Below, in pieces: positions 3,001 to 9,000 of a DNA stretch of 11,953 nt (position 1 is its first letter; the number at the start of each line of letters is the position of its first letter). This DNA is from a virus. Taxonomy: Duplodnaviria; Heunggongvirae; Uroviricota; Caudoviricetes. The stretch covers positions 1 to 11,953 of IMG/VR virus record IMGVR_UViG_2563366976_000008. One strand, written 5' to 3'. The position numbers are program-made.

Positions 3001-6000
3001 GAGAGTTGCCGGGTTCTTTAATGTGCAAGCGAGGCTCACCATCTTTTGGCTCAGGCCACTGGCGCTCCATGTTGATCTTCAATTTATCTTCCATAGCAAC
3101 GTTAATTTCAGCATCGCTGATGCCAGCACGGCGTTGTGCATCCCATAACAGAAACTGCATATCAGCCCACTCGCTAAGATCGTCTGGTTCGGCTGCGGCT
3201 TCCAGTGCCTCTTTTGAGAGGTGTTTCAGTGGACCAATGGGGCCAACGCAGCCAAATGTGGAGTCAGACCATTTGGCATGCTCGTGGCGAATCTGTTCGC
3301 GTTCCAGTGATGCCAGTGCAATTCGTGCCAGTTCCATTTGTTCGCCACGAGTAAGCCCGTTTTCAAGCGGATTTTTAATGAACAATTCAATACGTTCTTT
3401 GGTAATAGTGGTCATGTGTTAATCCTCAAAACTTTATGCCCGGGCGCAAAAGTACGTGTTTTGTCTTTGCTTATTCGCCACCCGTCTTTACGGGCCTCTT
3501 TTGCACAACCAGACCATGACGTACCGATATACTCACCGAAGTCTGGCACTGGATATACACCTTCCGTACACTGGCGACAATCACAATAGAGATGCATGGT
3601 GTAACTTGCGGCAATAGCCATATCAGTCTCCTTTGATGCGAATGCCTGTTGCAATGCTGTTTATGATGCTGTCAGTGCATGGGGTAGAAAGCTGGGCATC
3701 TCCAGCAATTTTCATGACCTCAACATCTGCATATCGAATACCGAGGTGTATCAGACCGGCTATGCCTGACTTAAGCCGAGCATTTTCCATAAATAGAACT
3801 TTTGCCCGCTGTTTTTCTGCTTCAAGCTCAACGCGCAACTTCCCTACCGTTAACGCAATATCCTCGTTCTCTTGGTCGCGGCGTTTGATGTATTGCTGGT
3901 TTCTTTCCCGTTCATCCAACAATGCCAGCACGGTAACTGGATTGGCTGCGGCGATGAATTCAGCATTGGCCTGCTGTTCCATTTGGAAATCTTCATCGAA
4001 ACCGCTTTCAGGATGCGCTCCTTCAATTCTGCAAATGGGAAGATATCCAACAACTTCACGATGAATTAGCGCATCACCAGCATCAAATCTCTCCTCTCCA
4101 TATTCTAGCGACCACACACCACACGTTGCTTTTTCTGCCTTAGCACGCAGTGCCTGGTAATTAATTTTGCTCATGTCACATCACCCTGAAGCCGTTGCAT
4201 TTACGTAAGAAATCGCAGATATAGCCCTTCATTTTTTCATGCCAATCTCGATCATTCCCATTGCACCAACCATCAGGTGGAGTCCAGTTTTCTATCAGAG
4301 CAGCCATTTTCTTTGCTTTCGCCGGAGTAGCTGTTGCGGTATCGCAGTAATGACGAGTGTCAACCAACGCATCCATACCATCGATATCAAGTACGCAAAA
4401 CCATGTGTGATTCGGAATTCCTACAGGTGGTATTTGTTGCCCACGTCGACGTTTATCAATAAGATATACACTCACTGCTTGCCTCCTTTGCGAATCTGTT
4501 CCGCCCATTCTTCAAGGGATTTCTCCGCATATTCACCGGACAGGCCATCAATCGGATGCGCTTCATTAACCAACTCTTCTTTCGCTGACAAAATCATGCG
4601 TGTAACGTCGAAAACTTCACGCAAAGACTTATTGATAAATCCGTGATTGAACGCAGCAGCAAGACGGCTGGCGGTATAGTTAATCCCCTCGTTGCGTGCT
4701 TCCGCACGAATTTCAGCCAGAAAAGCATCGGTGGCTGGGGTTTCCGTGAAGTTGTCCTCCCAACCGTAGTACTCCTGACGACAGAAGTTATTAAATTCCT
4801 TCTCCGACTGTTTAAGCGCCGCATTCTCCGCTGCCAGCGCCGCGCACTTGGCCTCCGCTTCAGCAAATTTACGCACCAGATATTCAGCGTTTGTTTCGTT
4901 AACCTTTAAATCACTTGGGATGCATTTACCTTTAAGAAATCCATCCATCTCAATTAGTGACATTTGTTTCATTTCTTCCCACTCCGCAACATCGCATTCA
5001 GATATTTGTTTTGATTCACTGATGGAAAAGAATTTCTCTTAAGCAATTCCTCTCTCGATGGCATTGGCTTTACGCGTTGGCGAATAATCATTTCTGCCGG
5101 AAGAATGCCGGGATTGTATGCAAGTCCTCTCATGGTAAATTCCTCAGTCATTACTGATAGCGCCATAGCGTGAGCGGTAATTACGCAGGCGCGGGTCGAT
5201 ATATTCAGGGAATTTGTCTATTGTCGCTTTTCGCAACGGTCTCATTGCTGTTTCGTTTGTTCGGTCCTTCTCCTGTTTTAGCGCGAGTTGTATATCGCGT
5301 CGGTACATCCGTTCTGCTTTTGTTTCTGGTGTCAGAGCAAGAAACGCGTCGAAATTGTTTTTGATATTTTCCAGCACCTCCGCCTTGGAGCTACCGGAGC
5401 AATTGCGCGGGTCATCCGCACCATACAGAGGCGCTGGCATAATGGGGGCCTTATTTTCAATAATCAGAAAGGAGGGTAATCGTTCTGGCTGTAACCATAA
5501 TCATCTGCATGATTATGGCTTACGTTTTTAGAGCGATTGTCTTTATCTTTGAGGCTGGCAACCATGTTGGCGATAGTTTCTGGTTGCTTGCCTTCCGCCT
5601 TTTCTTTAAGGGTTTGACCTGTTTGTGCAATAAACGGGATGCGTATTTCCATCTGGTAGCTGTCTGCGCCAGTCTTTTTGTTTGTGGTTAATACTTTCTG
5701 GAGCACTAACCCGATTTTCTTTCCATGAAACTCAGGAGCAACAAATTTACTGGCGGAAACCATATGTTGCGTTAATTGTCCAATCCCGGCACACCCCATC
5801 ATGGCGTGAACGACATTTGCGCCAAATTTGTTTTCCGTTCCGTCATTTTTCTGAACACAGACGCTAAGATATTGGATTTTACGTCCGTCGTCAGATTCGC
5901 CAGAAAACTCAATAAATTTGGCTCCTTTTTCTGATTGCTTTAGTTCTGCTTCAGTAATGGTAATGATATGAGCACCAGTTTCGTTAATAAAACCACCTTG

Positions 6001-9000
6001 CCCTGCGGTCAGTGCTGCTTCTTCGTTATAAGTAAAAATCACGTTGCTCATGCGGCGTTTTCCTTAATTTGATGAACATTATTGATGCCGTAGTAATCAC
6101 AAACAGTGGCATCGACGAAAGAGAGATCGTTATCAATCTCATTGGAATCAAACATTCCCATTGGGGATTTGACAGTGTCTGCACCGTTGTTTTTCGTGGT
6201 GAAAAAGAACTGGTCATCGCGGGTAAGAGTGCGAAGAACTATAGTAAACATGCCTTCGACAGTGATTTTCTCGTCCAGCATTTTGCCGATAGTTTTCATT
6301 TTCACGCGCCCCATAGGGGTTTCTTCGGTATGTGCAAGAAAATAGACTCTCAGGTCATCAGGTGCATCCTGTGCAGCCTTAATCACCTCCCATGCGTGGC
6401 GGCCTATCTCAGTAAATTTATCAAACGATTTTTCTTCTGAGCGGCGCATAAACTCATTGCTCATCACATACTGGAAGTCATCAACAATAACGATTCTTTT
6501 CCCGTATTCGTGAGCACGCTTAATTACGGCAACTATTACGTCCCATTTGTCAGTGGTAACTACGGTTCCTTTTTTTGCTCTGGCATCCCATGCCAGCCAG
6601 TCTTTTGATTTAAATGGTAGCGGCTTGCCTATTGGTTTTATAAGTATTGCTTCCTCTGGATTGATATTTCTCATGCTGGTTGATTTTCCGGTGCCAGATT
6701 CACCGAGTATTAATGTCGCAGTTCCCATAATTTGCCTCAGAATGGTAATTCGGATGGGGAGGAAAGAAACTCACGCTCATTCATGCGCTCTCTTTGCGCC
6801 TGCCATAAACAAAGTTGTTTCTTTGATTTATCTCCCGCTTTACGCCAGTAACGAGCCTCAGCAATGTGATATTCTCTTTTTAATCGACTTAACTCTGGAG
6901 TTTTCGCCAGTTCTACCGGAATCATTTTGACCTCCATTTTCTGTAGGCTTCTACGGCTTCACGAAACATCTTTTCATCGCCAATAAAAGTGGCGATAGTG
7001 AATTTAGTCTGGATAGCCATAAGTGTTTTATCCATTTTTGGGAACTCCTGGCTGATTAAGTATGTCGATAAGGCGTTTCCATCCATCACGTAATTTACGT
7101 GTGATTCGTTCAAGTAAAGATTCGGAAGGGCAGCCAGCAACAGGCCACCCTGCAATGGCATATTGCATGGTGTGCTCCTTATTTATACATAACGAAAACG
7201 CCTCGAGTGAAGCGTTATTGGTATGCATATAAAAAAGCCCTCACACTGGAGGGCAAAGAAGATTTCCAATAATCAGAACAAGTCGGCTCCTGTTTAGTTA
7301 CGAGCGACATTGCTCCGTGTATTCACTCGTTGGAATGAATACACAGTGCTTATTCGCAGCCTACATAATCATTCCGGTTATTATTACCATTTCAATATCA
7401 CTATCTTTCATAATGATTGGAGTTGAGTTATCAACTTTACTTTTACTCCATTTTCCTGCATCAGTTTTTACCGCTCCACAATAAGAAAGCCAATCATCAT
7501 CACAATGTTCTGGATCACTAATTCTGACAAGAACACGTGATAGTGCTTTTTCGATACTTTCATCACAATTAGCATTTGTGTAATTGCCGTGAGACAATTT
7601 CAAATCGTTAACTTCATCTTCATTGGCATCAAAAATATAGATTTCAGTCGACTCTGGAACATTTTCATAAACCATTAAAACTTTCATTTTTACCCCATAT
7701 TGTTTATGCCAAAAATAAAGGTCGGCTATGCGGCCTGAAATTACTTAATCAATGATGCTGCATATTCGATAAGGTAAAGTTTTGGGGCCAGCCAAATTTT
7801 TAACCAAGTCATATTGGTTACTGCACCAATAATAAAAATCCCCCACAGAGTCAAAACTCCAACCAATGGCACGATAAGAAGATTAATATCACCTTTGCTA
7901 TCCCAAACCATTGTCGGCCTGTATTTGGGATTTCCTTTCTCCCATGAATATCCTTCATCACCGATTTTACCTGTCTCAACTCTTTGGCACTGCTTCTTCA
8001 TAAACCAGAAAACCAGTGGGATTGTTAGAATGGCTATTAATGTTTTAATCAGACTGTCAACCATATTCCATAGCAGCAACTGATGAACAACATCAGGAAT
8101 CTGTGCCTGGCTAAATGAAACAGCCGCGTCTATTCCATTGCTGGCTTTTTGCAGTAGTTCTACGAGAATCTTGTTTGCTTGTTCTTCCATATATCACCTT
8201 AAATAGTGGCTTGCGGTAGTAAAGATTGTGCCTGTCTTTTAACCACATCAGGCTCGGTGGTTCTCGTGTACCCCTACAGCGAGAAATCGGATAAACTCTA
8301 TTCACCCCCTACAGAGAGAATGATGGAGATTCACCGATGAGTAACTGGTGGCAGGAACTATTACGTTTCTTCCTGCGTGGTCTTACGCTACAACAGTTAA
8401 TTCATATGCTTATTATTTTAATTGCCTTGATAATAATCACCCCAGCATCAATTAAAGAGTGGGTAGATATAAGGAACCCAGAAATACTTCCAGATCACTG
8501 GATGTATTACGCGATGCTTTTGTGTATCAGTTATGTTCTGAACAGGGTGATGGAGTTTATATTTCTGGCATCTTCAGACAGATATAAAAAATATCTCAGT
8601 AAGAGAGATGAGGCTAAAGTAATTGTGGAGACTGAGCGCCTGTTCAATTCTCTGAGTATTCAGGAAAAAGAGGTTTTAGCATTTGCTGTTATGGCAAATA
8701 ACAAAATCGTACTTAAGCACGGCGATCCGGTCGCTTTATCTCTTATGAGAAAAGGCCTTCTCCATCGCTCAGGTGTGACTTACAGCGCGTCAGGTAAAGA
8801 GAAATTTGTTATACCTGACGTCTGGTTCCATGAGTGTTATATGCGCTTTGCTGGTAAAGCTGATGAGCTAATTTAGTTCCTCGACGGCGGGGGATCGTCA
8901 TCTCGCCGTCAGTTGTTTTGATTTCCGGTAGCCTGCCGCGTAAAGAGCTACGTTTGGAAGACAAGTTGAACCTTCATATTTTCTGGTCAACGTTGTCAGA

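Follow-up and report, generated by a model that had tools for sequence, protein, structure and literature searches.

Which recombination genes lie at positions 5464-6728 of the IMG/VR virus record IMGVR_UViG_2563366976_000008, and do they stand where lambda carries Red? The window analyzed is the whole stretch of 11,953 nucleotides (nt); coordinates are window positions throughout, and all genes of the module are on the minus strand. A sequence-only reading of this DNA had proposed a Sak4-like ATPase plus a protein with a tail like that of the SSB (single-stranded DNA-binding) protein, in place of lambda exo, bet, and gam. Positions 5464-6728 almost certainly encode an annealing ATPase of the HK620 Sak4 type together with its SSB partner, both belonging to the recombination (Rec) module of a lambdoid prophage. 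All four genes of this HK620-type module (hkaM-sak4-ssb-abc2) are present in the window (Table 1). The coordinates first proposed were right for the two core genes and too narrow for the module, since they missed the hkaM-like open reading frame (ORF) on one side and abc2 on the other.

Identification of the ATPase and its partner

The ATPase, 226 amino acids (aa) long, begins with MGTATLILGESGTGKS. Both motifs that had been noticed in it, Walker A (GESGTGKS) and Walker B (IVIVDD), are read in its sequence, and residues G9, S11, G12, G14, K15, D83, and D84 are invariant across 50 Sak4 homologs of 54-89% identity. Its assignment as Sak4-like was borne out: residues 1-220 aligned with positions 1-218 of the 219-position profile of PHROG 2872, "Sak4-like ssDNA annealing protein" (E=3.9e-108; ssDNA, single-stranded DNA), and Pfam AAA_24 was matched just above its gathering cut-off (30.2 bits against 27). 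PHROG 124 was also matched (E=1.7e-5). The protein is identical to HK620 HkaL/Sak4 at 225 of 226 residues (99.6%), the conservative D43E being the sole change. An AlphaFold2 (AF2) model (predicted local distance difference test [pLDDT], 89.3; predicted template modeling score [pTM], 0.88) has the RecA/Rad51 core fold without extra N- or C-terminal domains, the 226 aa accommodating the core domain only. Fold matches to this model include, in order, RAD51D, RecA, RAD51C, XRCC3, KaiC, DnaB, and RadB. A GAGG Shine-Dalgarno sequence lies 8 nt upstream of sak4 and overlaps the stop codon of the preceding ORF. One cluster 100% identical to this Sak4 bears the label Salmonella enterica.

The ATGA overlap that had been reported between the two genes is present, appearing as TCAT on the plus strand, and ssb is also preceded by an AAGGA Shine-Dalgarno sequence. 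Its 195-aa product ends in ...HADDYGYSQNDYPPF; the final residues, previously likened to the C-terminal tip of SSB, are NDYPPF, the same as in the experimentally proven SSB_HK620. This protein matched PHROG 743, "single strand DNA binding protein" (E=3.3e-66), and is identical to HK620 HkaK (SSB_HK620) at 193 of 195 residues (99.0%), with the changes E153V and H179Q and an unchanged tail. Across 47 SSB homologs, conservation of the terminal F is at least 90%, and the consensus of the tip is of the D..PF type. Full-length, highly significant PHROG matches and many same-length homologs (hundreds to thousands for each of the 226-aa and 195-aa proteins) indicate that neither ORF arose by chance.

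HK620 carries a recombination module with the order hkaM-hkaL(sak4)-hkaK(ssb)-hkaJ(abc2), said to have been described in 2001 by Clark and in 2010 by Lopes; it is located at 4.1-5.9 kb of the HK620 genome. The window has the same four genes in the same order, with the same lengths (62, 226, 195, and 98 aa), downstream of kil/cIII and with the same ATGA overlap (hkaL, 5065-5745, and hkaK, 4481-5068, in HK620). The surrounding prophage differs, having lambda-like int/xis, another immunity region, and other ea genes. Block 4859-7349 is 95% identical to HK620 and 98.6% identical to phage JEP4 at the nt level. Megablast against phage genomes found a 2.1-kb region at least 98% identical in JEP4 and in dozens of phages converting to Shiga toxin (Stx) Stx1a/Stx2a.

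Position of the module relative to lambda

The module had been read as a replacement of lambda exo/bet/gam, and comparison with lambda agrees. Positions 6933-7226 are 95.9% identical to lambda kil/cIII at the nt level, and this homology ends at 6933, the position matching the gam start in lambda. Because the kil/cIII homology stops where gam begins, the module occupies the Red position, and the kil/cIII flank marks its right-hand boundary. In blastn and tblastx comparisons of the whole window with lambda 27.5-38.5 kb, nothing credibly matched exo, bet, or gam. Lambda matches are confined to int/xis, ea22, kil/cIII, the ea10-ral intergenic region, sieB-proximal DNA, and cI; leftward of the module, the next homology is an ea22 fragment at 3812-3931.

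A scan of 4900-7400 for internal promoters gave two matches against 4.4 expected, none above chance, consistent with transcription of the module from pL. Terminator-like sites in the same interval numbered nine against 2.5 expected. Two terminator-like hairpins lie on the minus strand upstream of cIII (7254-7237 and 7216-7197), and the HK620 annotation places terminators tL2A-D in and just upstream of cIII-kil-hkaM.

TABLE 1 Features of the Rec module and of other parts of the window
Feature	Position	Strand	Description and evidence
sak4 (hkaL ortholog)	6048-6728	-	226-aa RecA-core-only ATPase, predicted single-strand annealing protein; ORF, PHROG, Pfam, HkaL identity, AF2
Walker A codons	6681-6704	-	GESGTGKS, residues 9-16; read from sequence
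Walker B codons	6477-6494	-	IVIVDD, residues 79-84 (KRIVIVDD in context); read from sequence
ATGA overlap	6048-6051	-	sak4 stop (TGA) and ssb ATG share 4 bases (putative translational coupling); plus strand, TCAT
ssb (hkaK ortholog, "SSB-2")	5464-6051	-	195-aa predicted divergent OB-fold ssDNA-binding protein, disordered C-terminal tail; PHROG, HkaK identity, AF2, Foldseek
Codons of C-terminal tip	5467-5484	-	NDYPPF, putative Sak4-recruiting tail; same as SSB_HK620
hkaM-like ORF	6737-6925	-	Upstream module member; 62 aa, or 66 aa from alternative ATG (to 6937); PHROG 1723, HkaM identity
abc2	5144-5440	-	Downstream module member, putative anti-RecBCD; 98 aa; Pfam Anti-RecBCD_p2 (PF11043), PHROG 656
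kil	6922-7035	-	Lambda-homologous flank; Pfam Lambda_Kil E=5.7e-21
cIII	7028-7168	-	Lambda-homologous flank; Pfam Lambda_CIII E=9.4e-31
276-aa protein, ea (early-left accessory) region	2585-3415	-	dATP/dGTP pyrophosphohydrolase domain PF04447 E=3e-41 and C-terminal DUF551 E=2e-19
AntA / P22_AR_C antirepressor-like gene	1356-2015	-	Adjoins xis/int; PHROG 377 E=2e-93
Two overlapping ORFs between cI-like repressor and N	9671-10367	-	73 aa (PHROG 26284); 177-aa DUF2335 membrane protein (PHROG 3996, category "moron")
SieB-family superinfection-exclusion gene	8337-8876	+	Opposite strand within pL operon; Pfam SieB E=3e-20

Predicted fold of the SSB partner

Searches of PDB sequences, whether with single sequences or with profiles of 47 and 50 homologs, returned no meaningful relatives, only P-loop fragments at E>0.6, so the fold was tested by structure prediction. 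The AF2 model of the 195-aa protein (47-sequence alignment; pLDDT, 83.8; pTM, 0.73) has strands at residues 26-39, 45-53, and 58-67, a helix at 75-88, and strands at 112-123 and 130-141, forming a beta1-3/helix/beta4-5 core. Residues 177-195 have pLDDT <50, as expected of a disordered tail. Foldseek against PDB placed PrgE of plasmid pCF10 first (E=6.7e-5, probability 1.0), followed by Bacillus subtilis SsbA, Staphylococcus aureus SsbB, PriB, and many SSBs. These matches to proteins of the oligonucleotide/oligosaccharide-binding (OB) fold identify the 195-aa protein, as modeled, as a divergent OB-fold protein outside the canonical SSB sequence family. An ATPase of an unrelated family with a partner lacking an OB fold had been named beforehand as the outcome that would speak against the module; what we found is a Sak4-like ATPase whose partner has a predicted OB fold.

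We consider it unlikely that the 195-aa protein is instead a novel ssDNA binder ("SSB-2"), unrelated to OB-fold SSBs, that converged on an SSB-like tip. The structural matches just described stand opposite three observations in favor of such convergence: sequence or profile searches of Pfam, NCBIfam, and PDB gave no match to the protein, it does not share homology with bacterial SSB according to PMC12315714, and HHpred gave no direct link of HK620 SSB to E. coli SSB (PMC5928155).

PrgE (PDB 8S4S/8S4T), the best structural match of the putative OB-fold partner, is itself an atypical OB-fold DNA binder for which its authors proposed a phage origin (PMC11137577). Sequence identity to it is only 12-15%. 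PrgE binds both ssDNA and double-stranded DNA and forms a head-to-tail filament via its N-terminal tail, whereas SSB_HK620 is an apparent tetramer that signals via its C-terminal tip (PMC5928155, PMC11137577). Conceivably, though with low probability, SSB-2 is an OB protein that forms filaments in the manner of PrgE and does not act as the tetrameric bacterial SSB does.

Filing of the 195-aa protein under DUF669 was not adopted, as the profile search gave no match despite the NCBI naming. In the Pfam column, all 120 SSB homologs listed have "-", and NCBI names many of them "DUF669 domain-containing protein." Hutinet et al. stated a correspondence of the HK620 SSB family with DUF669 (PMC5928155).

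Function expected from the HK620 pair

The Sak4/SSB pair is already known, its HK620 copies having been characterized biochemically in 2018, so that, judged by sequence, the pair described here would hold nothing new. The experiments that the sequence-only reading proposed, recombineering with both genes and dependence on RecA or SSB, are published for the HK620 pair (PMC5928155). HK620 Sak4 binds to ssDNA, and its annealing of complementary strands requires ATP (Hutinet et al. 2018, PMC5928155). HkaK is a genuine SSB: its elution is that of an apparent tetramer, it shifts ssDNA, and it prevents annealing mediated by RecA; annealing by Sak4 is strongly stimulated by it (PMC5928155). In vivo, recombineering rose ~15-fold with sak4 alone and ~210-fold with sak4 and ssb, and deletion of NDYPPF, the last six SSB residues, lowered it 10-fold (PMC5928155). 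The tail-truncated SSB acts as an inhibitor in vitro, where Sak4 no longer binds SSB-coated ssDNA and the stimulation of annealing is abolished (PMC5928155). The activity of HK620 Sak4 is RecA independent, and strand exchange was not seen (PMC5928155). As for the last gene of the module, Abc2 binds RecC and alters RecBCD (PMC12315714).

By analogy with proteins that differ at one and two residues, ATP-dependent annealing, tail-dependent stimulation, and RecA independence would carry over to the pair in the window. Leftward transcription from pL would yield hkaM, sak4, ssb, and abc2 in turn. Sak4, as a RecA-core-only ATPase, would bind ssDNA and anneal complementary single strands in an ATP-dependent manner, while the co-translated, divergent OB-fold SSB would coat ssDNA and expose its NDYPPF tip. 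That tip would recruit Sak4 onto the SSB-ssDNA complex and strongly stimulate annealing, much as partners of the host SSB are brought in by its tail. Abc2 would modify host RecBCD, providing the end-processing and anti-nuclease functions that lambda obtains from Exo and Gam. Together, the four genes would do the job of lambda Red (gam-bet-exo) from the same genome position.

The genes might instead be intact but without a natural role in recombination, either serving phage DNA replication (theta-to-sigma switch, replication restart) or sitting in a defective, unexpressed prophage, and to this we assign a low probability. Rec modules have been linked to the theta-to-sigma switch (PMC12315714), although a replication role is compatible with annealing activity. 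Completeness of the prophage cannot be demonstrated from the window alone, and a megablast of the whole window found the 12-kb arrangement contiguous in none of 5,426 complete E. coli genomes (best coverage, 53%). However, the window retains an intact int-xis ... N-cI-cro framework, and each of the four module ORFs has its full length and shares 97-99% nt identity with viable phages such as HK620, JEP4, and Stx phages. This copy is presumably expressed and active. It is very improbable that Sak4 is a genuine RecA-like strand-exchange recombinase that forms filaments, invades duplexes, and treats SSB as a classical mediator target, since HK620 Sak4 showed no strand exchange in vitro and no RecA stimulation, lacks the RecA C-terminal DNA-binding domain (the 226-aa protein here being likewise the core domain only), and has in vivo crossover activity 500-fold below that of RecA (PMC5928155).

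Several points weigh against the assignment to an HK620-type annealing module. Among the profile checks suggested for the pair, AAA_24 and Sak4 came out positive, but the 195-aa protein matched neither Pfam DUF669 (PF05037) nor SSB (PF00436) in a hmmscan of Pfam-A, even at E<=10. NCBIfam profiles likewise gave no match to it or to any of the four module proteins. Sak4 departs from the assayed HK620 protein at one residue and SSB at two, and none of these substitutions falls in a motif. The Sak4-SSB interaction was shown by Hutinet et al. on ssDNA only (PMC5928155). Finally, the action of Abc2 on RecBCD is presumed from its Pfam match, for an allele 61% identical to HK620/P22 Abc2.

Comparison with other recombination modules

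The HK620-type module shares with lambda Red the pL-operon slot that lies directly downstream of kil and the combination of annealing-based recombination with RecBCD neutralization, and both support oligonucleotide recombineering (PMC5928155). The two are otherwise different. Neither sequence nor fold relates them, Beta being a Rad52-like ATP-independent annealase and Sak4 a RecA-core ATPase. Red has its own exonuclease and the RecBCD inhibitor Gam, whereas the module here has no nuclease and its Abc2 would modify RecBCD; Red also does not encode an SSB.

In organization, the module resembles those of P22, L, and ES18 (arf/orf66 - erf - abc1/ssb - abc2) more than it resembles lambda Red. The P22 arf-erf-abc1-abc2 module and the Erf modules of L and ES18 have the same four-slot organization and a homologous Abc2, and in L and ES18 the small ORF upstream of the recombinase is homologous to HkaM. 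The differences are that their recombinase is the Rad52-like Erf, not Sak4, and that in place of SSB-2 the third slot is occupied by Abc1 in phage L and by a bacterial-type SSB together with an endonuclease in ES18.

We know of no satellite link for enterobacterial Sak4. The staphylococcal Sak4 (ORF016; PDB 8RC5), which has only 13% sequence identity, is both trigger and target of the SaPI2 Stl repressor (PMC11846896).

The flanking module genes hkaM and abc2

Mild novelty attaches to two items that were not part of the original proposal: a diverged abc2 allele and the PSELPF C-terminus of HkaM.

Abc2 matched Pfam PF11043 over residues 1-98 and all 97 positions of the profile (E=1.5e-35; 121.7 bits, the cut-off being 25), and it matched PHROG 656 (E=5e-45). 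Its allele is only 61% identical to HK620 abc2 in aa sequence and 77% at the nt level. DUF2737, ssb, sak4, hkaM, and kil/cIII around it are 97-99% identical to HK620 at the nt level. The diverged abc2 is a gene-sized mosaic replacement within the module, so mosaicism is visible in the window itself, as a divergent allele inside an otherwise nearly identical block.

The stop codon of the hkaM-like ORF lies 8 nt ahead of the sak4 ATG, and its product is identical to HK620 HkaM at 61 of 62 residues (98%). The C-terminus PSELPF is invariant among homologs of 66-98% identity, whether they precede sak4 (HK620-type) or erf (L and ES18). It resembles the C-terminal tip of SSB (E. coli, DDDIPF; SSB_HK620, NDYPPF). 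In phages ES18 and L, the homologs (66-68% identity) lie between kil and erf with the same 8-nt spacing. Since homologs precede erf in these phages, HkaM is neither an orphan nor Sak4 specific. A role as a Sak4-specific partner was also rejected because no homolog lies upstream of the diverged sak4 of Serratia, Morganella, or Burkholderiales. The most diverged match, from Salmonella phage GE_vB_TR, is uninformative: its record is marked "UNVERIFIED" and is interrupted here by frameshifts and stops. Searching the literature for hkaM brought up unrelated papers only. As a long shot, HkaM might be a free-standing mimic of the SSB tail that competes for or recruits SSB-tip-docking proteins and so tunes the SSB-recombinase hand-off; its targets could then be the phage annealase or host RecO, ExoI, PriA, or RecQ.

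Distribution and significance

The sak4-ssb core occurs in 195 of the 5,426 complete E. coli genomes, in each case on the chromosome. Sak4 homologs are found in phages of Proteobacteria, Firmicutes, and Bacteroidetes, including crAss-like phages, and Roseburia phage Jekyll has genes annotated as Sak4 and SSB. About 80% of sak4 genes have an ssb-like gene directly adjacent (PMC5928155), and this adjacency is kept in three diverged prophages. In a Serratia prophage, Sak4 is 72% and SSB 53% identical, with a 4-nt overlap between the genes, and SSB ends in ...APGSEF. A Morganella prophage has a ~67% identical Sak4 with an SSB homolog (59%) directly downstream. In the third, from Burkholderiales (Chitinasiproducens), Sak4 is 57% and the adjacent SSB 23% identical, and SSB ends in the canonical DDDIPF. 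The Serratia and Chitinasiproducens endings indicate that the tip varies around a terminal aromatic F.

The significance of the locus is mostly one of correct annotation. RefSeq labels the pair "ATP-binding protein" and "hypothetical protein" or "DUF669 domain-containing protein," and these vaguely labeled genes correspond to the experimentally characterized Sak4/SSB annealing pair. Because the module is common in E. coli genomes and in Stx1a/Stx2a-converting phages, it is relevant to recombination and mosaicism among Shiga-toxin and lambdoid prophages.

Other genes of the window

Relative to lambda, nt identity is ~76% in int/xis and ~96% in kil/cIII, and the immunity region is different. The antirepressor-like gene beside xis/int is in an unusual place for a lambda-like layout, and the ea region includes a gene for a 276-aa two-domain protein (Table 1). 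The two overlapping ORFs at 9671-10367 sit in the slot of rexA/rexB in lambda and may represent a lysogen-expressed exclusion function or a moron. Lambda and HK620 (hkaP) have the same opposite-strand SieB arrangement in the pL operon as the window.

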